Source of the DNA: Microtetraspora malaysiensis
GTDB taxonomy: Bacteria; Actinomycetota; Actinomycetes; Streptosporangiales; Streptosporangiaceae
DNA length: 64,000 nucleotides
Direction: 5' to 3'
NCBI RefSeq assembly: GCF_001528665.1
Contig: NZ_BBYJ01000004.1
Location: forward strand, 310,472-374,471
Shown: positions 25,676 to 42,485 of the stretch, piece after piece
Layout of the letters: every line of letters begins with the position of its first letter
Numbering within the stretch: the first letter of the stretch is position 1
Translations under genes and position numbers: made by a program
The notes under the pieces: generated by a model
What the model was told of the DNA's origin: nothing
The model's database searches: none
The model's input: only the letters and a program-made list of their open reading frames with translations

Positions 25676-28600
25676 TCACGCGGGCGGGGCGGCCGGCCCA
25701 GGCTCGTCGGGGTGGGCGGTCGTGCGGTCGATGGCCCGTTCGACGCCGCCCACCCGGTCGGCGAGGAGCCCGATGGCGCCGACGGCCCGGACCATCGGGT
25801 CGTCCTCGTCGCCGCCGAGCGCACGGGCGCGGAGATATCCGGCCTTGACCTCGGCCCAGCGCCGTCGCTGCTCGTCGCTCATCCTGCCGCGCAGCTCGGC
25901 CAGCTTGAGCAGGTTGGCCTCGGCCTCGGACGTCAGTGTCTGCGCCTCACCCGCGTAATGGTCGTCGATCAGCGCCTCGACCTCGGCGTCGTTCATCACG
26001 GGGACGATCCGCTCCACGAGCTTGTTCATGTTCCGGTACGACCCCTGCAGCCGGAAGGACGGTTCGGTTCGCGAGGCGTCCGCCTGCGCCGCCGACGCGA
26101 TGTACGCCCGGTTGACGCCGAGCACCACCCGCTGGATCCGGGTCAGCTTGCTCAACACCGCCGTGACCTGGTCGAGCTCGACCTTCTGGTACGGATGGGC
26201 GAGCTGGTCGGCCCGCACGTCCGCGTCGCCGCGCGCCAACCGTACGAGAAGCTCGATGTCCGCGGGGTCGCGGGTGGACAGCGGCGCGAGAACGGGGTTG
26301 GAGGTGAGCGCGTTCTCGATGTAGCTCAGCGCGAACAGGTCCTCCCTGCCCGAGAGCACGTCGCCCAGGTTCCACACGTCGGCCCGGTTGGCCAGCATGT
26401 CCGGGACGCGGAACCGCTGCCCCGACTCCGTATACGGGTTGCCTGCCATGCAGACGGCGAAGCGCTTGCCGCGCAGGTCGTACGTCCGGGTGCCGCCGTT
26501 CCAGACGCCCTCCATCCGGCGCTGGGCGTCGCAGAGCGAGATGAACTTCTGCAGCAGCTCCGGCGAGGTGTGCTGGATGTCGTCGAGGTAGAGCAGCGCG
26601 TTGTTCCCGCACTCCAGCGCGAACGACACCTTCTCGATCTCCTGCCGGGCGGTGGCGTTCGGCGCGTCCGCCGGGTCGAGCGAGGTGACGGCGTGCCCCA
26701 ACGCCGGGCCGTTGATCTTGACGAACATCAGCCCGAGCCGGCTCGCGACATACTCCATCAGCGTGGTCTTGCCGTACCCGGGCGGCGAGATGAGCAGCAG
26801 CAGGCCCATCTGGTCGGTGCGCCGTCCCTCCCCCGCCGCGCCGAGCTGCTTGGCCAGGTTGTCGCCGATCAGCGGCAGGTAGACCTGGTCGAGGAGCCGG
26901 TTGCGCACGAACGCGCTCATCACCTTGGGCCGGTACTCGTCCAGCCGCATCCGGGCCCGCTCCCGGTCGAGCAGCTCGCCGCGCCGCTTCTGGTACGCCC
27001 GGTAGGCGGGCACCCGTTCGGTCCGGAACCGCCGGGTCCGGGCCAGGACCTCGTCGAGGCGCAGCGTCAGGGTCCGTCCGTTCAGCCGGGGGTGCGCCCC
27101 GAGCAGCCCCTCCACGGTGACCGTGAGCGACATCGACGCCTCGCGCCGCGGCAGGTCGCAGAGCAGGACGGCGACGGCCTCGGCGAGATCTCCGGCGCGC
27201 ACGTCCGCCGCTGTGCCCGGCCGGCCGCCTTCTCGCCGTACGGCTCCCGACCGGAGCGGCGACACGAGATCGGGAGACGTGCCGAGGAACGCCGTCAGCC
27301 AGGCCATGACGAGCTGGTGCCTGGCGGCCAGGTCGTCGCCCAGGGCCCGGAGCTCGGCGTCGAACTGCGCGGCCGACCCGCCGAGCGCCTCGCGAAACCG
27401 CTCGACCAGCCGCCGGGCGAGCGGGCCGGTCGTGAACCCCGCCTCTGAGACGGCGAGCTCGTCGAACAGGTAGTCCCCGGCCGGCTCGGCGTCGTCCAGG
27501 CGTACGCCCCGGTCGCGCAGGAAGGCGGCGATCGCCGACGCGAACTCCGCGCGCAGCTCCCCGATCGCGCCGCCGACCCCGTCATCCCGTACTGCGTCGC
27601 CGTGGTCCCGTACGGCGTCACCGTCGACCGCCGGGGCGTCCGGCGCGCCGGACGTGTCCGCCCCGCGCCTGAACAGGGAGCGCGCCCTGGCCAGCGACCT
27701 GGCCCTGGTGGTCCACGCCTCGCGTTGGGCCGCACCCGCGCCGAAGGTCCAGAAGAGCTGGGCGGCGGCCCGCGCCGACGGCGGGAAACGCAGCAGCCCG
27801 GCACGCGCGTACACCGGGAGCAGCGCGCCGAGGATCGCGGCGGCGTCGTGGTCGTGGACGCCGCGCTCGTACCCCTCGTCGTACCGCGTCTCGGCCAGGC
27901 GGCGGACGAGGTCCGGCAGCCCGCCTCCGGCGAGGGCGGCGTGCAGCTCGTCGAGCGTCAGACCGCCGCCGGAGGCCGACTCGGCCAGGTCGAGGATCGA
28001 CGCGGCCAGGTGCTCGGCGCGGTACACCTCGGGTGACTCGGAGACGAGCACCTGATCCCAGAACGCTCTGGTGCGGTGGAACGCCTCGTCGTCCACCGGC
28101 GACCGGTAGTCGGTACCCGTGATCGCGAACGCCATCCGCCCGTCCACCGGGACCATGGTGAGGTCGATGGGCTGGGTGTTGACCGAGAACCGGTGGCGGC
28201 CGAGCCGGATCGTCTCACCGCCGTCGGCGTACAGGTCGAGCCGGTCGCGCAGCGCCCGCCCCGCGTCGAGGCGGGCCGCCTTGACCCGCCCGTCGAGCTC
28301 GTCGGCGCGTACCTGGTCGCCGAGGGACCGCAGCTCGTCGGCGACCGCGCGGAGCTTGGCCACCATCGGGTCGGAGGCGAAGTACGTGTTCACCTCGTCG
28401 ATCGAGCCGAGGCTCCCGGCGCGCCTGCGGACGCTCTCCAGAATGCGGCCGGAGGAGGCGACCAGCCGTTCCGCGCGCCGGGCCCGGGCGTCCAGCAACG
28501 TCTGGCGGCGCGAGGAGAACGCCTCGTAGACGTCCCCGCGCCTGGCCTCCAGCTTGGCCACGAAGTCGTCGAAATCCCCGAACCGGGACTCCAGGTCCTC

Positions 28601-30877
28601 CAGCCTGAGCAGCAGCCTCCCCATCTGCTCGTCGCAGCTCTCCGGTGTGCCGGCGAGCGCGAGCGCGGCGCTGACGGCCTGGCCGAGGAGGGCGAACTCG
28701 GCGGCGAACTCGGCTCTCTGCTCACCCGCGAGCAGTTCGCGGCGCCGCGCGGCGAGCGTCGCCCGCGCCTGGTTGATCCCCGCGAGCACCTCGGCGACGC
28801 GTTCCAGGATGCCGGTGCGTACGGTCGCGTCCGCGATGTCCAGCCCGCCCACGACCTCGGTCAGGACCTCAAGGCCTTCGGTCTGCCCGGCCAGCCGCTC
28901 GGCCACGGGGCCGGATTCCGCCACGGTCCCGATCGCCTGCGCCTCGGCGGTGAGCCGGTCCACGTCCGCGTGATATCCGGTGAACGCGTCCGCGCCCCGG
29001 AGGAACTCGACCGCTCTCCGCGCGGCCTCCGCGATCTCGGTGTCGAATCGGCCCGCCAGCGCGTCCAGCCGCTCGACGTCGACGTAGCGAACCTCCCGCA
29101 GCGTCGCGAGCCGGCCCTGGGCGCGGCGCAGCTCGGCCAGCCGCGCCACCCATTCGCCCGCCGACGCCGGCGCCTCTCCGCGCACCTGCCGGGCGAGAAG
29201 GGCGACGTTCTCGGCGGCCTCGTCCAGGGCGGCCGCGGCCTGCGCGGTGAGCGACTCTACCCGCTCGAACTCGTCGAGCACCTGCTCGGCGGTCGCGCGC
29301 ACCGCCCCGACGCCGGAGCGCAGGTCGTGCTCGTCCAGCCAGTGGTACTGGTCGGCGATCCGCACGCACGCCGCGATGAGCCCCTCGAACACCGGAACGG
29401 ACGGCTCCATCGCGTCGGCCATCCGCACGACGGAGAGGCAGTCGGAGATCCCGCGCACCAGGTCGGCGTTGCCGATCCGCTCCAGCGGCCCCGTGCCCAC
29501 CGGCCGGGCCGCCTCGAACACGTCCGACACGTACGGCGTCTGCCAGATCTGCATCAGGTGGACCCGGGTCGGCTCCTCGCGTACGGTCCGGCCCTGCTCG
29601 CCCGCGACCGGCGCGGGCGTCCGGAAGTACACGAGCGTGCCGTCCTCGAAGAGCGAGTACCCGTGACACGTGATCGGGTTGCTCACCTCCTTGCGGATCA
29701 CGTTGTACGGCAGGAGCAGCGACCGGCCCTCCGCCCGCGCGTGGAACACGTACAGCACGTCCTCGCCGTTGGGCGAGCGGATGAGGCGCTCGAACTCCAG
29801 CTCGGCGACGTCGAGGTCGAAGGTCTTCACGACGCCGGTGGTGAGGTGGTATCCGCCGGGGAAGACGATCCCCTGGTCCTCGGGGAGCCGCTGGCAGGCC
29901 TGCCCGATGCCGTCGAGGCGTTCGACCTTCCTGGTCCTGGTGTTGAACACCAGGTGGCGCCACTCCTTCTCGTTGTACGGCCGTACGCGCAGCAGGATCA
30001 GCGGCCCGACCCTGGCGTAGTGGACGTCGGCGTCGGCGAGGCTCTGCAGCGGTTCCACGACCGGTTCCCGGTAGATGCCCTCACCGGTCTCGGTGTTGTT
30101 CTCGATCTTGATGGTGAGGTCGCCGCCGACCGTCTCGACGAACACCTCGTCCTCGATCGAGATGTGCGGATGGCGGCCGAGGACGTGGTCGTCCCGCGTG
30201 GTCTCGATCCACTCGAAGTCGTGCGACGGCGGGAAGACGTGGTCGCGTTCGCCCCGATTGTCGACATAGCGGACTGTGCCGTCGGTCGCGACGCTCCACC
30301 GCAGGACCCGGATGTCCTGCGGCCCGGTCTGGAACACGGCCAGCAGCCGCCCCTCCAGCCGCCGGAGCTGCAACAGCCTGGTCTCGCTGTAGTAGCGGTA
30401 CAGCTCGGCGAAGTCCCGCTCGAACGCCGGGTCGTCGAACAGCCCCGGCACCTCGTCGAACCGGAACGTGTCCCCGTCCCGGGTGAACCGGTGGAACGAG
30501 AAGACGTCCCGGGGGGTGGTCCCCGACTTCAGTCCGATGAACACGTTGTAGCCGAACAGCATGACCTCGCCGAGCGAGACGCTGTCGCGGGGCACGCAGT
30601 TGTTCTCGGTGCGGACGCGGGCGGTGCCGAGCAGGCGGAAATCCGCTCCGCCGAAGACCTCCAGCCGCCGCGCGTTCAGCTCCTCGGTCCGGCGCAGCAG
30701 CTCCTTCGCCTGCGTGGCCAGCCTGTCTCGCAGCACCTCGTACGTGCTGGAGTCCAGCTCGGCGGGTGCGGCCGACGGCCCGGTCCCGGCCTCCGCCGGT
30801 GTGGTCGTCGTGGCCGCGGATGTGGTCGTCGGCGTACTCATGGGCGTGCTCATCGGTGTGCTCATCGGTGTGCTCAT
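25676..30877 (-). CDS. Giant (about 1,730 aa) AAA+ ATPase with N-terminal beta-rich domain and long coiled-coil/Ala-Arg-Glu-rich middle; flotillin-operon-associated
   Basis: Walker A ISPPGYGKTTLMEY, Walker B ALLYLDDIQHT, sensor region NPYTESGQRFRVPDMLANRADVW near the C-terminus. Start placed at the first of four tandem ATG-Ser-Thr-Pro codon repeats (30875-30877), 50 bp after the flotillin stop. The track ORF starting at 30976 would overlap flotillin. Confidence 0.7.
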   Translation of the reverse strand: MSTPMSTPMSTPMSTPTTTSAATTTTPAEAGTGPSAAPAELDSSTYEVLRDRLATQAKELLRRTEELNARRLEVFGGADFRLLGTARVRTENNCVPRDSVSLGEVMLFGYNVFIGLKSGTTPRDVFSFHRFTRDGDTFRFDEVPGLFDDPAFERDFAELYRYYSETRLLQLRRLEGRLLAVFQTGPQDIRVLRWSVATDGTVRYVDNRGERDHVFPPSHDFEWIETTRDDHVLGRHPHISIEDEVFVETVGGDLTIKIENNTETGEGIYREPVVEPLQSLADADVHYARVGPLILLRVRPYNEKEWRHLVFNTRTRKVERLDGIGQACQRLPEDQGIVFPGGYHLTTGVVKTFDLDVAELEFERLIRSPNGEDVLYVFHARAEGRSLLLPYNVIRKEVSNPITCHGYSLFEDGTLVYFRTPAPVAGEQGRTVREEPTRVHLMQIWQTPYVSDVFEAARPVGTGPLERIGNADLVRGISDCLSVVRMADAMEPSVPVFEGLIAACVRIADQYHWLDEHDLRSGVGAVRATAEQVLDEFERVESLTAQAAAALDEAAENVALLARQVRGEAPASAGEWVARLAELRRAQGRLATLREVRYVDVERLDALAGRFDTEIAEAARRAVEFLRGADAFTGYHADVDRLTAEAQAIGTVAESGPVAERLAGQTEGLEVLTEVVGGLDIADATVRTGILERVAEVLAGINQARATLAARRRELLAGEQRAEFAAEFALLGQAVSAALALAGTPESCDEQMGRLLLRLEDLESRFGDFDDFVAKLEARRGDVYEAFSSRRQTLLDARARRAERLVASSGRILESVRRRAGSLGSIDEVNTYFASDPMVAKLRAVADELRSLGDQVRADELDGRVKAARLDAGRALRDRLDLYADGGETIRLGRHRFSVNTQPIDLTMVPVDGRMAFAITGTDYRSPVDDEAFHRTRAFWDQVLVSESPEVYRAEHLAASILDLAESASGGGLTLDELHAALAGGGLPDLVRRLAETRYDEGYERGVHDHDAAAILGALLPVYARAGLLRFPPSARAAAQLFWTFGAGAAQREAWTTRARSLARARSLFRRGADTSGAPDAPAVDGDAVRDHGDAVRDDGVGGAIGELRAEFASAIAAFLRDRGVRLDDAEPAGDYLFDELAVSEAGFTTGPLARRLVERFREALGGSAAQFDAELRALGDDLAARHQLVMAWLTAFLGTSPDLVSPLRSGAVRREGGRPGTAADVRAGDLAEAVAVLLCDLPRREASMSLTVTVEGLLGAHPRLNGRTLTLRLDEVLARTRRFRTERVPAYRAYQKRRGELLDRERARMRLDEYRPKVMSAFVRNRLLDQVYLPLIGDNLAKQLGAAGEGRRTDQMGLLLLISPPGYGKTTLMEYVASRLGLMFVKINGPALGHAVTSLDPADAPNATARQEIEKVSFALECGNNALLYLDDIQHTSPELLQKFISLCDAQRRMEGVWNGGTRTYDLRGKRFAVCMAGNPYTESGQRFRVPDMLANRADVWNLGDVLSGREDLFALSYIENALTSNPVLAPLSTRDPADIELLVRLARGDADVRADQLAHPYQKVELDQVTAVLSKLTRIQRVVLGVNRAYIASAAQADASRTEPSFRLQGSYRNMNKLVERIVPVMNDAEVEALIDDHYAGEAQTLTSEAEANLLKLAELRGRMSDEQRRRWAEVKAGYLRARALGGDEDDPMVRAVGAIGLLADRVGGVERAIDRTTAHPDEPGPAAPPA

Positions 30878-30886
30878 CAGCGCTGT
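30839..30886. repeat. 12-bp tandem repeat x4 (atgagcacaccg on minus strand) encoding MSTP MSTP MSTP MSTP at the 5' end of the giant ATPase gene
   Basis: cat at 30839-41, 30851-53, 30863-65, 30875-77 on plus strand, each followed by the same 9 bases. Confidence 0.85.
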
Positions 30887-30926
30887 CGTGGGCGCGTCAC
30901 GTGGTCCTCGGTGCCGGGTCGCACCA

Positions 30927-33074
30927 TCAGTGCTTCGCCGAGTTGGCCGGCGCCGAACCGGCCTCGGCCGGTGCACCGGTTCTCGAGCCGGCCGCCGTAC
31001 CCGTCGCCCCGGCGACGGCCGAGAGCGACCGGTCGGCGACGCCGAGGCTGCGGGCGGCGCTCAGCAGATCCTGGAGCTTGCCCGCGTCCGGGCCACCCGC
31101 GTTGATCAGCTTCAGCAGCACGGCCGAGAGCGTGAGGTTCCGTACGTCGGCGGTGTCCACCGAGCCGACGAGGCGCATCAGGTCCGCGGGCAGGCTCGCC
31201 GTCCCGTCCAGGTATGGCCCGGCCAGCGCCCGCGTCACCGCGGAGTTCTCGACGAAGCCGTCCACGCTCCGGCCCGCCGTGATCGAGTTCATCAACCGGT
31301 CGAAGAAGACGGTGTCGCCGCCCACGATGTCGATGTCGGCGTTCTCCAGGCCCGCGGCGAGCACGGTCGCCTGGGCGTCCGCGATCTCCCGCTGGACGTC
31401 GATGTTCTTGAGGCGGATCTCCTTCTCGGCCTCCAGCCGCAACCGGTACTCCTCGTGGCCCCGGCTCGCCTCGTCGAGCGCCGCCATGGCCTCGGCCTTC
31501 TCCTTGAGGCCCTCCGCCTCCGCCTTCAGCTTCTCGCCCACGGCGGCGGCAGCGGCGAGGGCCTTCGCCTGCTCGCCCTCGGCCTCCGCCTTGAGCCGCT
31601 CGCCGACGGCGAGCGCGGCGGCCAGGCCCTTCTCCCGCTCCACGGCGGCCTCCGCGCGCCCGACCTTCTCGATCGCCTCGGCGTCCCGTTCGCGTACCTG
31701 CACCTCGGCGAGCCCGGCGGCCGCCGCCTCGGCCCGCAGCCCCTCCGCGAGGCGGATCTTGGCCTGGCTGTCGAGCTCGGCCGCCTGCTGCCGCGCCTCG
31801 GCCAGGACGAGTTCCTCGCGCGCCTTGAACGTGGCCGCCTGCTCCGCGGCCTCGGCCGCCTTGATGTCCTTGACCAGGTTCTCCTGTGCCTCGGCCTCCG
31901 CCTGGATCACCAGCGCCTGACGGACCCGCTCGGCCTCCTCGACGACGCGCAGGCGCTTGATGTTCTCCTCCTGCTCGGCGACCGTCTTCTCCACGGCGAT
32001 CCGCTCGCGGGTCACTTCGGCGATGGCCCGCCGCTCGACTTCGAGCTCCTTGTCCTTGGAGATGCGCGACAGCTCGGTCTCCCGCTCGCGGGAGATCACC
32101 TCCAGCAGGCGATCCTTCTCGATCCGCTCGCTCTCGATGGCGATGACCCGCTCGCGGTTCTTCCCCGCGACCTGGATCTCCCGCTCGCGGTTCTCGCGCT
32201 GGATGCCGAGCTGCTCCTCCGTACGGATGTTGGCCGCCTCGAACTTGAGCCGCTCCTCCGCCTGCACCCGGGCCGTCTCGGCCTCCTCCCGCGCCCGCAC
32301 GGTGTCGATCTCGCGCCGCTGCTTGGCCTCGGCGTCGGCCTGCCGCCGCTCCAGTTCGAGGATGGCCTCCCGCGCGTCGACGTTCTGGCGGGTGATCTCC
32401 TTCTCCTCGTTGCGCTGGTACTCATTGGTGCGCACGTGCTCGATCGCCGTCAGCTCGGTGATCTTCCGGATGCCCTGCGCGTCGAGGATGTTCGCCGGGT
32501 CGAGCTGGGCGAGCGGGGTCTGCTCCAGGAAGTCGATCGCGGCGTCCTCCAGGCTGTAGCCGTTCAGGTCGGTTCCGATCACCCTGATGATCTGGTCCCG
32601 GAATTCGTCGCGCTTGGTATAGAGATCGACGAAATCGAGCTGCTTTCCGACCGTCTTGAGCGCCTCGGAGAACTTGGCGTTGAACAGCTCCTGCAAGGTC
32701 GTCTCGTCGCTCGCGCGTACCGTGCCGATCGCCTGCGCGACCTTGATCACGTCTTCGACCGTCTTGTTGACCCGTACGAAGAACGTGATCCGGATGTCCG
32801 CCCGGATATTGTCGCGACAGATCAGCCCTTCATGCCCGGTACGCGTGATCTCAATGGTCTTCACGGAGATGTCCATCACCTCCGACTTGTGGAGAACGGG
32901 AAGCACGACGGCGCCCGTGAAGGTGACATCGACCCGCCGCGTCTTGGAGACGATCAGCGCCATGCCCTGTTCGACCTTGCGATAGAGGCGGCTCACGACG
33001 ACGACCGCGCCGATGACGACAAGAAGGAGAACGGCGAGAAGCACGCCCGTCCCGGTGCTGATCACATCCACCAT
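30927..33074 (-). CDS. Flotillin (SPFH/band-7 family) protein with long coiled-coil EA-repeat C-terminal region
   Basis: N-terminal TM helix, SPFH domain (ALIVSKTRRVDVTFTGAVVLPVLHKSEVMDISVKTIEI...), extended Glu/Ala/Arg coiled-coil typical of FloT/YuaG. Confidence 0.85.
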   Translation of the reverse strand: MVDVISTGTGVLLAVLLLVVIGAVVVVSRLYRKVEQGMALIVSKTRRVDVTFTGAVVLPVLHKSEVMDISVKTIEITRTGHEGLICRDNIRADIRITFFVRVNKTVEDVIKVAQAIGTVRASDETTLQELFNAKFSEALKTVGKQLDFVDLYTKRDEFRDQIIRVIGTDLNGYSLEDAAIDFLEQTPLAQLDPANILDAQGIRKITELTAIEHVRTNEYQRNEEKEITRQNVDAREAILELERRQADAEAKQRREIDTVRAREEAETARVQAEERLKFEAANIRTEEQLGIQRENREREIQVAGKNRERVIAIESERIEKDRLLEVISRERETELSRISKDKELEVERRAIAEVTRERIAVEKTVAEQEENIKRLRVVEEAERVRQALVIQAEAEAQENLVKDIKAAEAAEQAATFKAREELVLAEARQQAAELDSQAKIRLAEGLRAEAAAAGLAEVQVRERDAEAIEKVGRAEAAVEREKGLAAALAVGERLKAEAEGEQAKALAAAAAVGEKLKAEAEGLKEKAEAMAALDEASRGHEEYRLRLEAEKEIRLKNIDVQREIADAQATVLAAGLENADIDIVGGDTVFFDRLMNSITAGRSVDGFVENSAVTRALAGPYLDGTASLPADLMRLVGSVDTADVRNLTLSAVLLKLINAGGPDAGKLQDLLSAARSLGVADRSLSAVAGATGTAAGSRTGAPAEAGSAPANSAKH

Positions 33075-33086
33075 CGAAGATCCCTG

Positions 33087-33647
33087 CTATTGAAGGTCGT
33101 AAGGCATGACCAAGAAGAACTCGCCCTCCGGGTCATAGTCGAAGATCAGAGCGGAGCTGCCGGCACGCAGATCCTCGTCTCCGGTCTGGCGCACCTGCAC
33201 AAGGGCCGAGGAGCCGTCATCGGCCGTGACCTCGGCCTGACCGAAGTCGTGCCCGACCCGTCCCGTGCGGATGACGCACATGCGGCCGACGAAATCGGCC
33301 CGGGACGGCGAAGCCACCGCGGGGAACAGGGCGCGGCTCGCCCGCGCGACCAGGCGGGCGCAGAGCCATCCGGCCAGCAGCGCGACCACGAGCACCGCCC
33401 ACCGAGCGGGAGGCCCCTCGGCCAGCACCACGCCGACCAGGCTGACGAACCAGGCGACCACGACCAGCAGCGACAGCGCCACGGCACCCGGCACTCCCCG
33501 TAGGCCGAGACCGGCGAGGAAATCGTCGGGGAGCTCCATCCCGAGTCCGCCGAGCAGCACGAGCGCCCAATAGACGATGACGACGATCAGCATGAAGCTG
33601 AACAGCACCGCCGGAAACTCCAGCACCGCATCGACGAACCGCGCCAT
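33087..33647 (-). CDS. NfeD-like membrane protein (flotillin partner, YuaF-like OB-fold)
   Basis: Three to four TM helices then C-terminal beta OB-fold (GRMCVIRTGRVGHDFGQAEVTADDGSSALVQVRQ...); 13 bp upstream of flotillin on same strand. Confidence 0.7.
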   Translation of the reverse strand: MARFVDAVLEFPAVLFSFMLIVVIVYWALVLLGGLGMELPDDFLAGLGLRGVPGAVALSLLVVVAWFVSLVGVVLAEGPPARWAVLVVALLAGWLCARLVARASRALFPAVASPSRADFVGRMCVIRTGRVGHDFGQAEVTADDGSSALVQVRQTGDEDLRAGSSALIFDYDPEGEFFLVMPYDLQ

Positions 33648-33831: not shown

Positions 33832-35964
33832 TCAGCGGATGGTCTGCCGCTCGGTCAGGGCGGCATACCGGCCGCCGTGCCGCATCAGCTCGTCGTGGGT
33901 GCCCCGTTCGACGATCCGGCCCCTCTCGACGACGAGGATCTGGTCGGCGTCGCGCACCGTGCTCAGCCGGTGGGCGATCACGATGCGGGTCTGGGTCAGC
34001 CAGGCGAGGTTCCGCTCGATCGCGGCCTCGGCGGCGGTGTCGAGATGGCTCGTCGCCTCGTCGAGCAGCAGGACCCTGGGCTGGGGCAGGAGCGCCCGCG
34101 CGAGCGCGATCCGCTGCCGCTGCCCGCCGGAGATGCCGCTGCCCTCAGTGAGCATCGTCTCGTACCCCATGGGCATGGCCATGATGTCGTCGTGGACGCA
34201 GGCCATCCTGGCCGCCGCCACCACCTGCTCCAGCGAGGCGTCGGGAACGGCCAAGCCGATGTTGTCCCTGATGGTCCCGGTGAAGAGGTGCGGCTCCTGG
34301 GTGACCACGCCGAAGCGGCTACGCAACCAGCGCGCGTCGATGTCCCACGCAGGCATCCCGTCGTACCAGACGTCACCCTCGACCGGCTGGTACAGGCCCA
34401 GCAGGATCCGTCCCAGCGTGCTCTTGCCCGACCCGGAACTGCCCACCAGGGCGATCTTCTGCCCGGGTCCGACCGCGAGCGACACGTTCCTGACCGTCCA
34501 TGGGGAGCGCGGGTCGAAGCGGAATCCGACATCCCGGAGGACCACCTCTCCGCGCAGGTGCGGCCGCTTCCTGCCTCTCCGCTCGGGCTCGGCCTCGACG
34601 ATGTCGGCCAGCCGCTCGAAGTGCGCCCCTGCCTCCTGGAGCTCCTGCAGGCTGGTCAGCAGCGAGGTCAGCGGGGTGAGGGTGGACATGGCCAGCGCGT
34701 TGAGCGCGAGCATGGTGCCCAGAGTCAGCTCGCCGTCGAGCACCCGTGACGCGCCCACGAGCAGCAGCAGCGCGGGACCGAGGACCCTGATCCCCGACAG
34801 GACCGCATCCAGGGCCCCGCGGGTCAGGCCGAGACGCACGTCGGCGTTCATCTGGGCGGTGAACATCCTGGACCACCGCTCCATGGCACGCCATTCGGCG
34901 CTGGACGCCTTGATGGTCTCGATGCCTCCGATGGACTCGATGAGCCGGCCCTGGGTCGTGGCGGCGGCGGTCAGCTCGCGCCCGGTCAGGTCGGCGATCC
35001 GCCTCCGGGTGGCCAGCAGCAGCGCGACCTGGACGACCGCCACGGCGAGCAGGCATCCTCCGAGCACGGGATCGCCCAGGAGGACCAGAGTCATGAGGAC
35101 CGCGGCCATCGGACCGTCGAGCAGCGCGGAGAGCGCCTGGCCGGAGAGCATGGCCCGGAGGCTGGCCGCGCTCTGCGTGCTCATGACCAGGTCGCTCGTC
35201 CCCCTGAGGGTGAAGAACCGGTAGGGCAACGTGAACAGGTGCCCGACCACACCCGCCGTGAACTGGGTGTCCGCCCGCGCCCGCAACATGAGCAGCACGG
35301 CCGTACGGAGGTACGTGAGGATCGCCTGGATGAGCACCACGAAGCCGAGCCCCACGATGAGGATCCGCAGCAGATAGCGGTTCCCTCCGGGAAGTACCTC
35401 GTCGACGACGAGCCCGGAGAGCAGGGGAAGGACGAGGGTGACGCCCTGCAGCAGCAGGGACGCGAACAACCCCTGGAGCAGCAGGCCTCGGTGGCGGGCC
35501 AGCAGGGCGCGGACCAGGTCCCGGCGCCACGGGCGGCGCTGCGGGCCCCGGACGTCGAACTCGGGGCCGGGTTCGAAGGCCAGGACGACCCCGGTGAACC
35601 CGACGTCGAACTCCTCCGGCGTGAGCCTGCGCCGCCCGGAGGCGGGATCGACGACCTCGACGACGTCCGGGCGCCAGCGCTCGACGACCAGGAAGTGGTT
35701 GAACTCCCAGTGCACGATGAAGGGCCCGGGCACCGCGCCGAGCTGCTCGGGGGCGAGCGAGAACGCCTTGACGCGCAGGCCGTACGATCTGGCGGCCTCC
35801 GCGACGGCCGACGCGCTCAGCCCGTCCCGCGACACCTGGACGTGCTCGCCGACCTCGCGCACGGTCGTGCGGCGTCCGTGGTGCCTGAGAACCATCGCCA
35901 GGCAGGCGGCGCCGCAGTCGGCCATCGTGGCCTGCCTGATCACCGGTACCCGCCCGCGCCTCAT
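33832..35964 (-). CDS. Peptidase-C39-domain ABC transporter (bacteriocin/RiPP leader-cleaving exporter)
   Basis: N-terminal C39 papain-like domain with catalytic Cys context QATMADCGAACLAMV; 6-TM ABC exporter domain; nucleotide-binding domain with Walker A GSSGSGKST, signature LSGGQRQR, Walker B LLLDEATS. Start ATG 35962-64 overlaps upstream stop (ATGA). Confidence 0.85.
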   Translation of the reverse strand: MRRGRVPVIRQATMADCGAACLAMVLRHHGRRTTVREVGEHVQVSRDGLSASAVAEAARSYGLRVKAFSLAPEQLGAVPGPFIVHWEFNHFLVVERWRPDVVEVVDPASGRRRLTPEEFDVGFTGVVLAFEPGPEFDVRGPQRRPWRRDLVRALLARHRGLLLQGLFASLLLQGVTLVLPLLSGLVVDEVLPGGNRYLLRILIVGLGFVVLIQAILTYLRTAVLLMLRARADTQFTAGVVGHLFTLPYRFFTLRGTSDLVMSTQSAASLRAMLSGQALSALLDGPMAAVLMTLVLLGDPVLGGCLLAVAVVQVALLLATRRRIADLTGRELTAAATTQGRLIESIGGIETIKASSAEWRAMERWSRMFTAQMNADVRLGLTRGALDAVLSGIRVLGPALLLLVGASRVLDGELTLGTMLALNALAMSTLTPLTSLLTSLQELQEAGAHFERLADIVEAEPERRGRKRPHLRGEVVLRDVGFRFDPRSPWTVRNVSLAVGPGQKIALVGSSGSGKSTLGRILLGLYQPVEGDVWYDGMPAWDIDARWLRSRFGVVTQEPHLFTGTIRDNIGLAVPDASLEQVVAAARMACVHDDIMAMPMGYETMLTEGSGISGGQRQRIALARALLPQPRVLLLDEATSHLDTAAEAAIERNLAWLTQTRIVIAHRLSTVRDADQILVVERGRIVERGTHDELMRHGGRYAALTERQTIR

Positions 35965-36149
35965 CGCCCCGCTCCGAGCGCGGGAAGGACGCCGATCAGC
36001 ACCACGGCCGCCATCGCCATCGCGAGCAGCCCGACGTAGATCCACAGGCCGACCAGGAGCCTCCTGGAGATCCGGTACGGCCGCTCGACGCGCCGCCGGG
36101 CGGCCATGTGGTGGTGAACCGCCTTCTCCCGGTACGGAAGTCCCGTCAT
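35961..36149 (-). CDS. Small single-TM membrane protein (62 aa) translationally coupled within the graspetide operon
   Basis: ATG 36147-36149 overlaps the stop of the upstream parvulin-like gene (ATGA), and its own stop overlaps the ABC transporter start (ATGA). Sequence MTGLPYREKAVHHHMAARRRVERPYRISRRLLVGLWIYVGLLAMAMAAVVLIGVLPALGAGR has one hydrophobic helix. Confidence 0.45.
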   Translation of the reverse strand: MTGLPYREKAVHHHMAARRRVERPYRISRRLLVGLWIYVGLLAMAMAAVVLIGVLPALGAGR

Positions 36150-37198
36150 GTGCCGGCCCGCCCGGCCGTACCGGTCGAGTTCGCGACGCCGGAAGAGCCG
36201 GACGCGGCGGTCCGGTCCGCGGTCCCCCAGAACCATTCGATCTTGGCCGTGCTCCTGCGCCGCTCGATCCATTCGGCGAAGATCCGGCGCTCGACGAGCT
36301 CGCGCACGGTCCCGTCGAGAACGGCGGGCTCCACGGCCAGCACCTTGATCAGCAGGTGACCGTGTTCCGTCGCGAAAGGACCGGTGACCGTCCCCGGCGC
36401 GGCTCCGAAGACCCGGCCGGCCGTCTCTGGGCTCAGGTCCCCTCTGCGCAGCGTGGCGAACACCTCGCCCGGCCGTGCCGTGCCGTCCGCGAAAGCCCGC
36501 TCCGCGGCGTCGAGGAACCCGTCGGCGGCCGGCACGCGCGGCCCTTCGGTGAACTCCACCCGCGCGACGCGGGCGACGTCGAACTCGTGACCGTGCGCGG
36601 CGAACCAGTCATCGACCCGGCCGGCGGCCACCCGCGACCGGAGTCCGGCCACGGACGCCTCAAGGACGACCAGCTCCTCCAGCTCGTGGTGGGAGATGTG
36701 GTTGCGGTCCATCCATGCCCGGACCGCGCCGCCGGTCAGCAGCCCACGCGCCCGGCGGAACGCGTCCATCGCCTCCTGGAGCTCCGCGTCGGTCAGCGGT
36801 TCGGGCTCCTCCTCCCGCACCTCACGTACGAGGCTGTCGGTGACGAGGCGGTCGGCCAGCCGCGACTCGTCCCAGATGAAATCCAGGCAGGCGATCGCCC
36901 TGGCCACCGGGGTCTCGACACCGTTGACCCGGAGCAGCAGGTGCTCACCGGCCCGGTGGACACCGCGCAGCGGCCAGGGCAACGCCCGGTCGGGGCACCA
37001 GGAGAGGGAGATCGTGGCGCCGTCGCGTTCCTTGATGAGCAGAGCGTGATGGAGCGATCCGTCATATTCCTCACGCTGGGCGACCAGCCGCACCCGCGCC
37101 CCCGGGTACCGCGCCCTGAAGCCATCGAGGTCGTGCCCGGCCGTACCGGCGCCGAGCATGTCGATCGCCTCGGCGAGCATCCGTCCGTCCGTCACCAC
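36146..37198 (-). CDS. Peptide-maturation-system protein with C-terminal PpiC/parvulin-like domain
   Basis: C-terminal GEVFATLRRGDLSPETAGRVFGAAPGTVTGPFATEHGHLLIKVLAVEPA resembles parvulin rotamase fold; start GTG 37196-98 overlaps ATP-grasp stop (GTGGTGA); family of accessory proteins reported next to SAV_5884-type ATP-grasp RiPP maturases. Confidence 0.55.
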   Translation of the reverse strand: MVTDGRMLAEAIDMLGAGTAGHDLDGFRARYPGARVRLVAQREEYDGSLHHALLIKERDGATISLSWCPDRALPWPLRGVHRAGEHLLLRVNGVETPVARAIACLDFIWDESRLADRLVTDSLVREVREEEPEPLTDAELQEAMDAFRRARGLLTGGAVRAWMDRNHISHHELEELVVLEASVAGLRSRVAAGRVDDWFAAHGHEFDVARVARVEFTEGPRVPAADGFLDAAERAFADGTARPGEVFATLRRGDLSPETAGRVFGAAPGTVTGPFATEHGHLLIKVLAVEPAVLDGTVRELVERRIFAEWIERRRSTAKIEWFWGTADRTAASGSSGVANSTGTAGRAGT

Positions 37199-38157
37199 GT
37201 CACTCCGCTCATGAGCAGCTCGCCGACCGCCGCGCCGATGGGCAGCCCGGTCGCGTCCTCGATCCAGAGGAACTGGCCGTTCGGATTGATCTCCAGGAAG
37301 ACATGGCGGCCGTCCGGCGTGAGGATCAGGTCGATCGCGCCGTAGGCCAGCCCGAGCCGCTCGACCAGATCCAGGCACCGCTGGGAGATCTCCGGCGGCA
37401 GGTCGTGCGCCCGGATGGGCGTCGCGCCGGGGTCGTAGTGTCGCCAGTCGTACCGGGTGTGGTTGCTCACCTGGGAATGGATCTCCGCGGCGAAGACCTT
37501 CCTGCCCACCACGGTCACGCGTATCTCGACCCGCTTGGGCACGTACGCCTGGACGATGACCGGGCAGAAGCGCAGGGCGTCCGCGTAGGCGACGTCCACA
37601 GGGGTGACGGGGGCCGCGAACCGGCCGAACCGCTCTCCCTCCGCTTCGAGCTGGTTGCCGTGCACGGGCTTGGTGATCACACGGCCCTCGTGCCGGTCGT
37701 AGAAGTCGAGAAAACTCTCGGGGTCGGTCGTGACCAGCGTCGCGGGGAGCTCAAAGCCCAGCCGCCTGGCCAGTTCGAGCTGGTACGGCTTGCGCGCCGC
37801 GCGGTCGATGACCGGCCGGGAGCCGGGAACCGTGAGGCAGCCGAGGCTGTCCCAGAGGCTCTCGGCCATGACGCGGCACTCCTCCTCCACGTAGTCGCGG
37901 GCGGCGACCCTCGGATGCGCGACCGGGTCGAGGGGCCTGCGGTACCAGAGCGCGGTCACCTCGTCGAGGACGAGGCGGCGGCCCGCGCGGCCGAACATCC
38001 GGCTGGTCGAACCATCCCCGGAGTGGCTGATCTCGAGGGTGGCGGCGGTCGGGAAGGAGGCGGGATCGAAGACGACGACATCCGCGCCCGCGGTCATGAG
38101 CGGTTTCACGACCCGGTCGGCGTGCTCATCTCCGTCAGAGGTCAGGACGAGGATCAT
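37192..38157 (-). CDS. ATP-grasp ribosomal peptide maturase (MvdD/MdnC-like; graspetide macrolactone/lactam ligase)
   Basis: Start MILVLTSDGDEHADRVV (hallmark N-terminus of RiPP ATP-grasp ligases), ATP-grasp fold motifs (VITKPVHGNQ, EIHSQVSNHTRYDWRHYD, GAIDLILTPDGRHVFLEINPNGQFLWIE); 50 bp downstream of precursor gene. Confidence 0.8.
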   Translation of the reverse strand: MILVLTSDGDEHADRVVKPLMTAGADVVVFDPASFPTAATLEISHSGDGSTSRMFGRAGRRLVLDEVTALWYRRPLDPVAHPRVAARDYVEEECRVMAESLWDSLGCLTVPGSRPVIDRAARKPYQLELARRLGFELPATLVTTDPESFLDFYDRHEGRVITKPVHGNQLEAEGERFGRFAAPVTPVDVAYADALRFCPVIVQAYVPKRVEIRVTVVGRKVFAAEIHSQVSNHTRYDWRHYDPGATPIRAHDLPPEISQRCLDLVERLGLAYGAIDLILTPDGRHVFLEINPNGQFLWIEDATGLPIGAAVGELLMSGVTW

Positions 38158-38206
38158 CGGCGGGGCTCCGGACGGGGGCGCGACGCGGTCGCGCCCCCGC
38201 GGCGAA

Positions 38207-38356
38207 CTAGTTGCTGTCGCCGGAGGTGTGCGTGTGGTTGCCGCAGATCTCGATGACCTGGCTCTTGGCGCCACCGCTCACCTGAAGAAGCTGACCCTCG
38301 TCGAGCTCCGGACCGAAGGCCGCGATGTCGTCGAGGGTGGTACGCGTCTTGCTCAT
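38207..38356 (-). CDS. Graspetide precursor peptide (49 aa) with double-glycine leader
   Basis: Ribosome-binding site GGGAGAAAGG 10 bp before ATG 38354-56. Sequence is MSKTRTTLDDIAAFGPELDEGQLLQVSGG / AKSQVIEICGNHTHTSGDSN: leader ends in GG (substrate for the C39 transporter), and the core carries Thr/Ser hydroxyl donors and Asp/Glu acceptors. Confidence 0.7.
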   Translation of the reverse strand: MSKTRTTLDDIAAFGPELDEGQLLQVSGGAKSQVIEICGNHTHTSGDSN

Positions 38357-38655: not shown

Positions 38656-39546
38656 TCAGCGGACGCGGCCGACCATGCGCGCGTACATACGGCCGGGACT
38701 CGGCACTGAGGGCGGGTGCAGGAAGCCCGGCAGCATGGGCAGGTCGACGGAGAAAGGCTGCAGTCGCTCGTAGAGCGTGACGGCGTCGGCGGGGCGATTC
38801 TCCGGCTGCTTCTCCAGCAGCTCGGCGATCAGCCGGTCGAGCTCGACCGGGACGTCGGGCACCGACGGCGGGCGTTCCTTCACCTGCTTGTCGAACACGG
38901 CGTACTCGGTCGGCCCCGTGAACAGCGGCTTGCCGGTCAGCATCTCGTGCAGGACACAGCCGAGAGCGTAAAGATCGCTCTTCGGGCCGGCGACGCCGCG
39001 CTGGATCTGCTCCGGCGACATGTACGCGGGGGTGCCGAGGATCTGCCCGACCCGGGTGAACTGGGCGCCGTCCGACTCGCGCAGCATCGCCAGACCGAAG
39101 TCGAGGACCTTGACGCTGCCGTCGGGGCAGAGCATCAGGTTCGTCGGCTTGAGATCACGGTGACAGATGGACAGCGCGTGCGCCGCGGTCAGCACCGCGC
39201 ACGCCTGGGCGGCGATCGCCGCGGCCCACGGGACCGGGAGCGGGCCATATTCGCTGACCAGGTCGGCGACCGTGACGCCCTCGATGAACTGCATCACCTG
39301 GAAGAGGCGCTGATCGTACGTGCCGAAGTCGTAGAGGACGGGCGCGCCCGGATGCTCCAGGCGGGCGAGGATGCGCGCCTCTCGGATGAACCGGCGCTCC
39401 AGCTCCTCGTCATGACCACCCGGAAAGCGGAGGAACTTCACCGCCACCTTGCGGTCGAGACGCCTGTCGTGGCCGCCGTAGACGGCCCCCATGCCGCCCT
39501 GGCCGAGAGGAAGGTCGTCCAGCTCATACCGGTCACCGATGACCAT
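38656..39546 (-). CDS. Ser/Thr protein kinase (catalytic domain only, 296 aa)
   Basis: [33 protein letters not shown] motifs; 38 bp downstream of the methyltransferase gene on the same strand. Confidence 0.8.
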
Positions 39547-39584: not shown

Positions 39585-41696
39585 TCACGCGCGCGGTCGT
39601 AGACGGCCGTCAACCAGCCCCTCCAACCCCAGCCGGATCAGCGCCTCGCCCGCGTCGGCCACTTCCCTGATCGCGTCCTCCAGTTCGGCGAGCCGCCGGA
39701 AGGCCGCCCCGTACGCCCGCTGCTCGACCAGCGGGAGCCGCGGGACGCGAGCCCGGCGGACGTCGACGCGGCTGGCTCCCGGGTGCGCCCGGGCGGCCGC
39801 GTACCGCAGGAATCCGGCGAGGAAGTCCGCGTCGAGCCGGGACCGATCCACCTGGTAAAGCGAGAGCTGCGGGCCGAGGACGGCGCCCGGCTGGTGGATC
39901 ACGCGTGCGGTCGTCGTCGAGGCCACCACGTCTCCGGCCGCCACCGTGACGATGCCGGGCTCACTGCCGGAGCGACCGGACGGCGTCCCGCCTCGGGCGA
40001 GGTCGTCGGCGGTCAATACGTTGAGATCTCCGCTGTCCGCGGTTTTCAGCACCGAATGCCGCACCGTCACCATCCCGGCCTTGGCCAGATCGGTGATGGC
40101 GGTCGTGGGGAGGCCGGCTCGCCCGGACAGCACCTCCAGGTCGGGCAGCGCCCCCGCCGCCTCGGCCAGCACCTCGGCGAGGTCGCGGAGCCCGCGCCCG
40201 GCGGCGGGATAACGCTGCGCGTCGCCACGTGAGGAGACGTGCCGGGCCGGGCTGACGTCCACCTCGTCGTCGAGCAGATCGATGATCCGTACGATCCGGG
40301 CAGAGCGCGGCAACTCGCCTGCCGAGGCCACCGCCGCGGCCTGCCTCGCAACGCCACCGGACGTCCGGCCTTCGGCCACCGAACCGGCGGCCGGCCCGCG
40401 TCGGGCGGCTTCCGGCGCTGCGGGACCGGCCGTGTCCGTGCCGGCGAAACCTTCGCCGGCCGTAGGACTCGTGCCGACGTAACCCGCGTCGGCCAGGTAG
40501 GTCCACCAGGCCGACTCGACGATCGAGAGGTCGTCGGAGGCGTCGGCGAGCAGGATCGACGCCGGGGAGGGCGCCCCCGCCTCCGGCCGGCGCAGCAGCC
40601 AGAGATCCGGCCCCGCGGCGGACAGGCCGATGACCGCGCGCAGGGCTCCGGCGCGGAGCAGGTTCGCGCGGATCCGACGGCCGGAACGCCGGGCCGCGGC
40701 CGCGGCCGGCATCAGGATCGCCACCAGGCCGCCGGGACGCGCGTGGGCCAGGCAGTGCTGGACCCAGGCCAGCTCCGGCTCGCCGCGCGGGGGCACGCCG
40801 TAGTCCCAGCGCGGATCGCCGATCAGCTCCTCGTGGCCCCACGCCCGCTCGTTGAAGGGCGGGTCGCACAGCACCACGTCCGCCCGCTCGCCCTCGAATC
40901 CGTCGTGCCGTAACGAGTCGCCCGCCACGACGCGCGCGTTCGCGTCGCGCAGGAGGAGCCGCAGCGAGGCGAGCAGAGCAGAGGTCTCGTTGATCTCCTG
41001 GCCGAGCAGACGCACCGGCGGCGCACCGGGCGGCGCGCCGTCGAGGACGGCGGTGTCCGAGACCGCGAGCAGGAGCGTTCCCACACCGACCGCCGGGTCG
41101 AGGATCGCGCCTCCTTCGGGACACGCCTGGCGCGCGAGCCGCGCCATGAGCGACGCCACCTCGCCCCGCGTGACCGCGAGCCGCCGGGTGTGCGCCTCCA
41201 CGTAGCGCTCGCAGACGAACTCGAACGCGGTGGCCGGTCCGTGGAGCGCGGACAGGTCCGCGATCCACCGGATGAGCTGCGCGTCCTCCAGGACGCTCCC
41301 CGGCCGGGCCGGAAGGTCGGCCGTGGCCGCCGCGACCTCGCGCGGCAGCCGTACGACCAGGTCGGGAGCGGCGGCGAGCCGGCGCCAGCCGTCGGGATCC
41401 CGTCGCGCGTAAAGGAGGAACGCCCCCGCGAAACCGCTGAGCTCGCCCAGCCGGAGGTCGTCCACGGCGGCCCTGAGCCCCTGCCAGACACGGTCGCCCA
41501 GCGACACCTCGAAGGACTTGCCGTTCCTGCGCAGCCACTCCTCGATCTCGGGCAGCGAGAACAGCGGGCTGGACGCGGTGCCGCCCACCGGGTGGGGAAA
41601 GTCCTCATACCGACGGCGCCAGTTGCTCACCGCGGCCCTCCCGACGTCGGCTAGGCGGGCGATGTCGCCCGCGTTCACTGTGGCGTCGTGGCTCAT
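39585..41696 (-). CDS. N6-adenine DNA methyltransferase fused to HsdS-like target-recognition domain, with N-terminal HTH
   Basis: Motif I ILDPAVGVGTLL, motif IV LCDPPFN (gamma-class N6A methyltransferase); C-terminal PRLPLVEQRAYGAAFRRLAELEDAI resembles the conserved HsdS helix; N-terminal MSHDATVNAGDIARLADVGRAAVSNWRR HTH. Start set to ATG 41694-96 to leave a divergent promoter. Confidence 0.7.
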   Translation of the reverse strand: MSHDATVNAGDIARLADVGRAAVSNWRRRYEDFPHPVGGTASSPLFSLPEIEEWLRRNGKSFEVSLGDRVWQGLRAAVDDLRLGELSGFAGAFLLYARRDPDGWRRLAAAPDLVVRLPREVAAATADLPARPGSVLEDAQLIRWIADLSALHGPATAFEFVCERYVEAHTRRLAVTRGEVASLMARLARQACPEGGAILDPAVGVGTLLLAVSDTAVLDGAPPGAPPVRLLGQEINETSALLASLRLLLRDANARVVAGDSLRHDGFEGERADVVLCDPPFNERAWGHEELIGDPRWDYGVPPRGEPELAWVQHCLAHARPGGLVAILMPAAAAARRSGRRIRANLLRAGALRAVIGLSAAGPDLWLLRRPEAGAPSPASILLADASDDLSIVESAWWTYLADAGYVGTSPTAGEGFAGTDTAGPAAPEAARRGPAAGSVAEGRTSGGVARQAAAVASAGELPRSARIVRIIDLLDDEVDVSPARHVSSRGDAQRYPAAGRGLRDLAEVLAEAAGALPDLEVLSGRAGLPTTAITDLAKAGMVTVRHSVLKTADSGDLNVLTADDLARGGTPSGRSGSEPGIVTVAAGDVVASTTTARVIHQPGAVLGPQLSLYQVDRSRLDADFLAGFLRYAAARAHPGASRVDVRRARVPRLPLVEQRAYGAAFRRLAELEDAIREVADAGEALIRLGLEGLVDGRLRPRA

Positions 41697-41753
41697 GACG
41701 ACAAGCTTAGCTGGAGCTTGTGAAGTCATTCAACCAGTGCTTTACTCAAAAGC

Positions 41754-42485
41754 ATGACGCACAACCGACTTCGCTACGCCGCGGGATCCGACGTCGGACG
41801 TTCCCGGAAGAAGAACGAGGACTCGTTCCACGCCGGCGAGCGACTGCTCGCCATCGCCGACGGGATGGGGGGTCACGGCCACGGAGAGGTGGCAAGCGCG
41901 GCGGCGATCTCCGCCCTCGTCCTCCTGGAAGAAGGGCCTTTCCCCGAGGACGCCGTCGCCGCCCTCGACGAGGCGGTGCAGGAGGCCAGCCGCAGGTTGC
42001 GAGATCTGGCGGTCCGAGATCCGGCCCTTGAACGGATGGGCACCACCATCACCGCGATGCTCTGGGACGGCTCCCGCTTCGCGCTGGCCCACGTGGGCGA
42101 CTCGCGGGCGTACATGCTGCGTGACGGCGCTCTGTACCAGATCACCCGTGATCACACGCTTGTCCAGTCTCTGGTGGACGACGGCCGGATGAGCCCCGAT
42201 CAGGCGGCGAAGCATCCCAACCGGTCCCTCCTGTTGCGTGCGGTGGAGACGAGCGGCCTGGCCGACCCCGACCTCTCGCTTCGCGGAGCACACCCCGGCG
42301 ACCGCTATCTGCTCTGCTCCGACGGGCTGACCGCCGTGCTCGATCCCGAGACGCTGCATCGTGTGCTCACCACGGTCGCCGATCGGGAGGAGGCCGTGCG
42401 TCACTTCATCGAGTTGGCCAACGAGGCGGGCGGCCCCGACAACATCAGCGTCATCGTCGCCGACGTCGACGCGGTTCCGGCCTGA
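41754..42485 (+). CDS. PP2C-family Ser/Thr protein phosphatase
   Basis: DVGRSRKKNEDSF...ADGMGGHGHGEVAS...DSRAYML...LLCSDGL: canonical PPM motifs. Confidence 0.85.
   Translation: MTHNRLRYAAGSDVGRSRKKNEDSFHAGERLLAIADGMGGHGHGEVASAAAISALVLLEEGPFPEDAVAALDEAVQEASRRLRDLAVRDPALERMGTTITAMLWDGSRFALAHVGDSRAYMLRDGALYQITRDHTLVQSLVDDGRMSPDQAAKHPNRSLLLRAVETSGLADPDLSLRGAHPGDRYLLCSDGLTAVLDPETLHRVLTTVADREEAVRHFIELANEAGGPDNISVIVADVDAVPA

Follow-up and report, generated by a model that had tools for sequence, protein, structure and literature searches.

Graspetides of group 21 were defined in a 2026 study by the presence of a MirC-type protein of the TIGR04500 family, and in the 325 clusters tabulated in its supplement this family is found in all, with the model TIGR03796 for a peptidase-containing ATP-binding cassette (ABC) transporter (PCAT) found in 74% (PMC13097080). 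In Micromonospora rosaria, the source of the group-21 product rosaritide, the ATP-grasp ligase MirB is inactive without MirC, and together the two introduce three macrolactones through three dehydrations. Both domains of MirC are required, MirB and MirC are each insoluble alone and co-purify as an active complex, and MirC co-expressed with the precursor MirA alone produces no mass shift (PMC13097080). Here we describe a cassette of this kind in a 64,000-nucleotide stretch of DNA from Microtetraspora malaysiensis (hereafter the window), and examine two of its genes that a first-pass annotation had singled out as unusual accessories, one encoding a protein of about 350 amino acids (aa) with a parvulin-like C-terminus and the other a 62-aa membrane protein. 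The cassette as a whole is likely best explained by a MirC-type ligase partner acting together with a small HlyD-type adaptor stub that serves the PCAT.

A self-contained graspetide cassette

Analysis of open reading frames (ORFs) places five translationally coupled genes on the minus strand of the window, between positions 38389 and 33832, with the following features.

38207..38356, minus strand: precursor peptide, 49 aa, starting at ATG 38356 (the mechanical ORF begins at GTG 38389)
38172..38200, minus strand: GC-rich 13-bp hairpin, from folding energy and presence in related loci
37192..38157, minus strand: ATP-grasp graspetide synthetase, MirB-like, 321 aa, from NCBIfam and Pfam
36146..37198, minus strand: MirC-type partner protein, 349/350 aa, from TIGR04500, an AlphaFold2 model and Foldseek
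35961..36149, minus strand: predicted N-in single-pass membrane protein, 62 aa, from conservation, coupling and hhalign
33832..35964, minus strand: PCAT, 710 aa, from Pfam and NCBIfam

The order is thus precursor, hairpin, ATP-grasp ligase, MirC-type partner, 62-aa membrane protein and PCAT, the last four genes being joined by GTGA, ATGA and ATGA overlaps in DNA whose GC content is high throughout the window (about 0.70–0.75). The coordinates, strand, sizes and start/stop coupling first given for the two accessory genes all hold, and the best protein matches of both are from M. malaysiensis (97% identity). A promoter and terminator scan of the operon was uninformative. The genes on either side, which encode a DUF3686/AAA protein, a Ser/Thr kinase, an N6 methylase and a PP2C phosphatase, are not conserved beside any related cassette, even at 91–97% identity, and the unit therefore consists of exactly the five cassette genes; the flanking kinase, methylase and DUF3686 genes were accordingly rejected as cluster members. 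What remains is a self-contained unit of five genes, a graspetide cassette of the rosaritide-like kind typical of group 21, and a new member of the known group-21 clusters.

The ligase scores 245 bits against TIGR04187 (cutoff 350) and 225 bits against the MvdD model TIGR04184, and Pfam recognises an MvdD pre-ATP-grasp domain in it; its stop codon is the TGA at 37194..37192. At the other end of the operon, Pfam finds the C39 peptidase (PF03412), ABC membrane (PF00664) and ATPase (PF00005) domains expected of a PCAT, and among NCBIfam models it scores best against TIGR03796 (NHLM_micro_ABC1), with 634 bits where the equivalog cutoff is 853. A longer, 737-aa version of the transporter with a GTG start, which would overlap the small ORF, was rejected because no PCAT family model aligns to it before residue 32 (the main matches begin at about residues 33–47).

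The MirC-type partner protein

The larger accessory protein belongs to an already known family, the MirC type, and is not new. It matches NCBIfam TIGR04500 ('PpiC_rel_mature') at 395.5 bits against a cutoff of 180, over profile positions 18–340 of 340, and its relatives are already named as TIGR04500 family proteins in NCBI annotation. It also shares 42% identity with the 131 N-terminal residues published for MirC (E = 8e-19), and the motifs PWPLRG and LDF(I/L)W are common to both. The gene is indeed not part of classical microviridin clusters, as had been noted at first pass, but the label 'unusual' has to be withdrawn, for this is the defining, curated component of the tabulated group-21 clusters (PMC13097080). 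Translation may begin at GTG 37198 (350 aa) or at GTG 37195 (349 aa, in a GTGA overlap with the ligase stop). The second start is more likely, and the 349-aa version matches a 349-aa NCBI protein (P0005) that is 97% identical. The stop codon, TGA at 36148..36146, overlaps the ATG at 36149 of the 62-aa ORF (ATGA).

Synteny with ATP-grasp genes had been proposed as a check on the assignment of this gene, and it holds without exception: homologues lie directly 3' of the ATP-grasp gene in 36 of 36 recovered genome loci, which come from Nonomuraea, Streptosporangium, Sphaerisporangium, Microtetraspora and Thermopolyspora as well as from metagenome-assembled genomes (MAGs) of Acidobacteria and Planctomycetota. 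The same arrangement of ATP-grasp gene followed by partner gene is seen in loci L037–L043 and L053 of our collection, and in the window the partner gene also follows a precursor with a double-glycine (GG) leader and an MvdD/TIGR04187-like ATP-grasp gene.

The protein comprises an N-domain of about residues 1–110, with invariant PWPLRG and LDFIWDE motifs, and a C-terminal part in which a degenerate parvulin domain (about residues 208–295) is inserted into a SurA-like helical chaperone domain. We modelled the protein with AlphaFold2 from an alignment of 49 sequences (predicted local distance difference test, pLDDT, 84.9), and the best Foldseek matches of the model in the Protein Data Bank (PDB) are LIC12922, SurA, Cj1289 and PrsA. 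By sequence, the family profile detects SurA (E = 5.5e-12) in three segments, namely the chaperone helices, the parvulin domain and the C-terminal helix. The parvulin-like region reported at first pass is therefore real, if weak by Pfam (PF00639, Rotamase: 23.0 bits against a cutoff of 21.7, residues 228–286), and its fold is recovered by profile matches to the peptidyl-prolyl isomerase domains of Par10, Pin1 and PrsA (E = 1e-3 to 1e-5). Conservation is strongest in the N-domain and the helical scaffold. The PWPLRG loop (residues 74–79) lies in a low-confidence stretch of the model, as might be expected of an interface that takes shape only on complex formation.

Dependence of the ligase on its partner and co-purification of the two were demonstrated for MirC, and by homology the same would be expected of the window protein; the earlier guess of a chaperone or ligase partner matches this experiment on the homologue (PMC13097080).

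A small membrane protein tied to the exporter

The 62-aa ORF is a genuine gene rather than an accident of GC-rich sequence. We compared 28 Streptosporangiaceae cassettes, that is, the window and 27 related loci, of which 17 (the window and 16 others) include a PCAT. The small ORF is present in all 17 cassettes that have a PCAT and in none of the 11 that do not, the latter ending after the partner gene with unrelated genes next; conservation of the small ORF, another check suggested in the first-pass annotation, is thus complete among the PCAT-bearing cassettes. The exporter-less cassettes (L006–L008, L011, L014, L017–L020, L022 and L025) hold precursor, ligase and partner only. In all 17 cassettes that carry it, the ORF has 61–62 codons without indels and starts in an RTGA overlap (ATG or GTG over the upstream stop), and its G+C content is 0.87–0.97 at third codon positions (GC3) versus 0.46–0.49 at second positions (GC2); several public genomes call it as a coding sequence. 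In the window its stop codon, TGA at 35963..35961, overlaps the ATG at 35964 of the PCAT gene (ATGA). The encoded protein has a basic N-terminal tail (MTGLPYREKAVHHHMAARRRVERPYRISRR), one hydrophobic helix and a 7-residue C-terminal tail, and an N-in topology is predicted from this arrangement.

Beyond this close group, where the partner proteins are 44–51% identical, the same slot holds an ORF of 58–79 aa that overlaps both neighbours and encodes the motif IFREEALRRHA, a spacer of about 15–20 residues, LLW and a membrane helix. The clusters in question belong to Microbispora, Dactylosporangium, Streptosporangium sp., Actinocorallia, Nonomuraea sp., Thermopolyspora and one MAG. Such a stub, or a longer relative of it, fills the slot before the PCAT in most of the actinomycete group-21 clusters examined. 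A 29-member profile searched against a representative library of 1.84 billion proteins returned 333 clusters at E ≤ 1e-3 (the lowest HMMER E-values reach 1e-19), most of them of 55–80 aa, together with a second class of about 170–220 aa that was matched at the N-terminus only. Proteins of this second class join an FRxEAL tail and a membrane helix to a small beta-rich outer domain ending in GS.Y.A.VEVGSRR..SL.P, and may be intermediate mini-adaptors. Searches of Pfam and NCBIfam gave nothing meaningful for the small proteins (the best match, TraX at E = 0.007, is a membrane-helix artefact) and no family match for ten relatives of about 190 aa, which showed only sub-threshold TOBE matches. We found no description of such stubs in a limited literature search.

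Wherever the genomic context of the family is available, it includes PCAT genes or genes for ribosomally synthesised and post-translationally modified peptides (RiPPs). A 169-aa relative in L053 (4001–4510) lies between a 327-aa gene at the MirC position, without a recorded Pfam match, and a 759-aa gene at the PCAT position, in a cluster that also has a GRASP_targ_2 precursor and an ATP-grasp gene. A 201-aa relative (L052:92–697) overlaps the start of a C39 PCAT, and a 189-aa relative (L050:400–969) follows a LanC-like domain in a lanthipeptide-type context. In L051 the gene for a 65-aa relative overlaps that of a PCAT and has a GG-leader peptide as neighbour, but the vicinity holds no ATP-grasp gene. 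That peptide (L051:3575–3772; MKDQVRIEDMAAELDIEQLEQVSGG / AKGYHHRDNCFWKHIISTHRPFGPGYGKGPAVGERPCVID), which has the 65-aa stub and the PCAT beside it and no modification enzyme in the vicinity, may be an unmodified or disulfide-bonded actinobacterial bacteriocin.

The likeness of these proteins to HlyD adaptors emerges from profile–profile comparison with hhalign, for which profiles were made of the small family (A3), the class of about 190 aa (A4) and HlyD N-termini (A5). The small family aligns with the longer class at a probability of 98.9% (E = 3.5e-17), and the longer class with the HlyD N-termini at 95.4% (E = 2e-8) over 69 columns that take in the motif, the spacer, the helix and a post-helix VPvYaSG motif; comparison with a single HlyD sequence was too weak (P 0.04). 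The reference HlyD is genuine: it scores 366 bits against TIGR03794, comes from an acidobacterial locus where it lies directly before a PCAT, and has an N-terminus of the form ..FGKQALERMSSPDRLDQL..P.DW-helix-W.QLPTTVSGEG. A metagenome scan for HlyD relatives gave six loci, three of them usefully diverse, and three metagenomic HlyD relatives begin MFRKEALERLSSPERLDQL...; their N-termini and that of the acidobacterial protein make up the HlyD profile. On these alignments the 62-aa protein appears to be remotely homologous to the first module of the HlyD family (TIGR03794 / TIGR01843), although it falls outside the definition of that family for want of any extracytoplasmic domain. In one group-21 cluster from a metagenome, a full-length adaptor gene comes after the PCAT. 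The simplest reading of the sequences would be a reduction series, from a full HlyD adaptor (about 430 aa, in double-membrane bacteria) through proteins of about 170–200 aa to stubs of about 60 aa in single-membrane bacteria.

Precursor peptide and downstream hairpin

The precursor joins a double-glycine leader (MSKTRTTLDDIAAFGPELDEGQLLQVSGG) to a 20-aa core (AKSQVIEICGNHTHTSGDSN), and its match to TIGR04497 (GRASP_targ_2; 22.7 bits, cutoff 32) is confined to the leader. Across 27 related loci the precursor is 80–96% identical and the core pattern is conserved, with the highly conserved consensus AKSQVIxI(H/C)GxHxHTSGDSN (window 38207..38269, minus strand). The window core contains three His and one conserved acidic residue, and as it ends in HTSGDSN, with a single Asp, it does not show the DxDxD acceptor pattern. 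Proline is absent from it, and in L011 and L013 the orthologous precursors are proline-free throughout. The ring number and topology probably differ from those of rosaritide. With only one acceptor Asp conserved, fewer rings are expected, although with low confidence, and an equally tentative prediction is one ring that would join Ser3 or Lys2 to Asp18.

In the small membrane proteins of the window's own subfamily, HHH is conserved at the place of RRH in their relatives. A link of this motif, or of the His-rich core, to metal binding would be pure speculation.

The hairpin (GGGGGCGCG...CGCGCCCCC) begins 7 nt past the stop codon of the precursor and precedes the ligase gene. Its minimum free energy is −33.7 kcal/mol (z-score −2.9; none of 200 shuffled sequences folds equally well), and an equivalent hairpin occurs in 27 of 27 Streptosporangiaceae loci (L001–L026 and L036), although both stem and loop vary. 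It is probably an attenuator or a transcript stabiliser that sets the ratio of precursor to enzyme.

A proposed division of labour

In the scheme that we favour, the partner would be non-catalytic, its N-domain and SurA-like scaffold, with a dead parvulin insert, forming a complex with the ATP-grasp enzyme. This complex would stabilise the ligase, present the leader-bearing precursor to it, or both, and presentation in this way would lead to side-chain ester or amide rings. The PCAT would then cut the leader after the double glycine and export the product.

The 62-aa protein would represent the free-standing cytoplasmic tail and membrane helix of an NHLP-type HlyD adaptor, the periplasm-spanning part of which would be dispensable in a single-membrane actinomycete and would have been lost. 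What the sequences show is its conservation, translational coupling, co-occurrence with the PCAT and apparent remote homology; we infer that the stub most likely binds the transmembrane domain of the PCAT through its helix. The basic tail, on the cytoplasmic side, could recruit or hand over the modified precursor, or else tune the activity of the peptidase or ATPase, and in this cluster the stub might bridge the ligase–partner complex to the exporter. A broader proposal, which we put forward tentatively and with more doubt than belief, is that the 62-aa protein and its relatives of 55–80 and about 190 aa are unrecognised minimal membrane-fusion-protein stubs, required as PCAT partners in single-membrane bacteria and having an autonomous, periplasm-independent role. 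Such a role would be, for example, to pass on the substrate or to gate the C39 peptidase or ATPase.

Weighing the alternatives

The first-pass annotation had also considered the partner as an isomerase or as a second modification enzyme. We regard it as very improbable that the protein is an active peptidyl-prolyl isomerase, or any other tailoring enzyme acting on the precursor or product, even though the Rotamase score lies just above its threshold, the parvulin fold is recognised by profile and structure alike, and cis/trans proline isomerism is known in another graspetide group (PMC13097080). None of the catalytic positions represented by Pin1 H59, C113 and H157 is retained in the family: the first parvulin His is replaced by R213 (Arg in 40 of the 49 family members), the second by L282 (Ala, Val or Leu across the family), and the Cys/Asp position is variable, with Gly or Ala in place of Pin1 C113, in an alignment of Par10 and Pin1 to the profile. 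The parvulin insert is moreover the least conserved part of the protein and is partly deleted in Microbispora and Herbidospora, and the substrate itself, in the window core as in the precursors of L011 and L013, can be devoid of proline. In the mir system both prolines of rosaritide are trans, and the absence of a mass change with MirC and MirA alone speaks against a second modification enzyme (PMC13097080). The loss of the His residues, the proline-free substrates and the inertness of MirC alone on MirA together make an isomerase or tailoring role unlikely, and the partner is likely a pseudo-isomerase with a structural or chaperone role.

For the tiny membrane protein two roles had been suggested, immunity and export adaptor. 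The second is supported by the strict co-occurrence with the PCAT and the remote homology to HlyD N-termini; the first, in which the protein would shield the membrane of the producer, or a membrane target, from the mature graspetide, as for class II bacteriocins, we consider unlikely. Its size and single-helix topology are those of many immunity peptides, and the gene does lie inside the cluster, coupled to the exporter. It follows the exporter and not the precursor, however, since 11 cassettes keep precursor, ligase and partner in the absence of both the small gene and the PCAT, and the presence of relatives beside PCATs for unrelated peptides (the GG-leader peptide of L051, the lanthipeptide-type context of L050) is a poor fit to product-specific immunity. 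The alignment of the N-terminal motif, the helix and, in the longer relatives, the post-helix motif with HlyD adaptors also argues for the adaptor, and rosaritide caused no growth inhibition in the panel tested (PMC13097080). Less probable still is a non-functional ORF, either a conserved spacer that couples translation of the PCAT to the upstream gene or a decaying remnant. The median ratio of nonsynonymous to synonymous substitution (dN/dS) of about 0.65 indicates weak purifying selection, some clusters do without the ORF, most genome annotations omit it, and our first search gave four proteins only; yet 17 cassettes, with protein identities as low as 56%, are free of indels and frameshifts, the codon-position GC is typical of coding sequence, the protein motifs are kept across genera whose MirC-like neighbours have diverged to 44–51% identity, and the family numbers 333 clusters.

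Several observations weigh against the favoured scheme of MirC-type partner and HlyD-type stub. The ATP-grasp enzyme, the precursor and the PCAT each fall under the curated cutoffs of their nearest NCBIfam models, and the core has one conserved Asp against the three acceptor Asp of rosaritide. The two products must therefore be different, and that the ligase depends on its partner is an extrapolation. As to the stub, direct comparison of the small family with HlyD by hhalign reached 71% (E = 3.6e-5) over just the 28 columns of motif and spacer, and the link depends on the transitive step through the class of about 190 aa and on a shallow HlyD profile of four sequences. Profile searches of the PDB with the small and the ~190-aa families yielded chance membrane-helix matches only, which counts against the homology of the small family, and hmmscan of the small proteins against the NCBIfam HlyD models gave no match, maybe because TIGR03794 aligns only from residue 16, after the motif, on the HlyD tested. 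In the subfamily of the window the motif is degenerate (LPYREKAVHHH versus IFREEALRRH), and the dN/dS of 0.65 points to weak constraint. Finally, two Streptomyces group-21 clusters with an adjacent PCAT (L038 and L030) have no small ORF, so that the stub is not universally needed.

Neighbouring genes

Two regions outside the cassette deserve brief mention. A 1766-aa protein (window 25676..30976, minus strand), unrelated to the cassette, combines DUF3686 ('ATPase involved in DNA repair'), DUF7902 and an AAA domain. After it on the same strand, and likewise unrelated to the cassette, come genes for a 715-aa coiled-coil-rich protein and a membrane protein of 186 aa, both without a Pfam match at E ≤ 1e-5. 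The coordinates noted for this locus are 25676..30976 and 30927..33647, both on the minus strand. A 714-aa protein with an N6 DNA methylase domain (39585..41729, minus strand) is encoded between the Ser/Thr kinase gene (38656..39546) and the PP2C phosphatase gene (41754..42485, plus strand), and this region may be part of a restriction or defence locus.

Significance

The cassette finding is sound, the headline gene is explained by existing work, and the second gene is a modest but real lead. For the large gene there is little that is new: the window extends by one a family whose partner role has been published, the new member having a divergent core that is rich in His and has a single Asp, and our own contribution consists of sequence-level reasons against a prolyl isomerase role, namely the loss of the His residues and the proline-free nature of some substrates. 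The small gene matters more. Surveys of graspetide gene co-occurrence that rely on hidden Markov models miss it because no model exists for the small family, and the stub is also found beside the PCATs of other peptide classes. If the stub is a functional adaptor, heterologous production and export of such peptides may need it, and it would offer a simple system in which to study, in isolation, the roles that the cytoplasmic tail and the membrane helix play in adaptors of type I secretion.

Comparison with known systems

The cassette most closely resembles the MirC/rosaritide (mir) cluster of M. rosaria, which has the same order of precursor, ATP-grasp, partner and PCAT genes and in which MirC has the two-domain architecture of the window partner, with a SurA/Cj1289-like C-domain. 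The two differ in their cores, that of rosaritide (LPRNGAGSSKTIDDIPGGGRPDTDSDF) having 27 aa and that of the window 20 aa with a richness in His; MirA ends in DTDSDF and other group-21 cores in DxDxD(F), whereas the window core keeps one conserved Asp. By its published description alone, the mir cluster has four genes and no small membrane gene, unlike the window. The fold of the partner is in turn that of SurA, PrsA, PEB4 and Cj1289, in all of which a helical chaperone module is built from N- and C-terminal segments with the parvulin domain inserted.

For the stub, the closest counterparts are the HlyD proteins of NHLP-type bacteriocin systems (TIGR03794) and related accessory proteins of bacteriocin systems, which have the F-R-x-E-A-L-x-R motif, the spacer of about 20 residues and the P/W-flanked helix that characterise the stub family. 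The genes for both adjoin, and usually overlap, a C39 PCAT of the TIGR03796 type, and the stub gene adjoins the exporter in every locus with enough context. The lipoyl, coiled-coil and beta-barrel domains of HlyD (about 350 aa) are missing from the 62-aa protein, which ends 7 residues past its helix, and the stub gene of the window, unlike the HlyD reference family, is that of a monoderm and lies upstream of the PCAT. Single-helix peptides of about 50–60 aa that accompany a large membrane transporter, and are presumed to modulate it, are also represented by AcrZ (with AcrB) and KdpF (with KdpABC). The stub has no sequence relationship to either, its partner here is an ABC peptidase-exporter, and the peptide itself would be derived from an adaptor.

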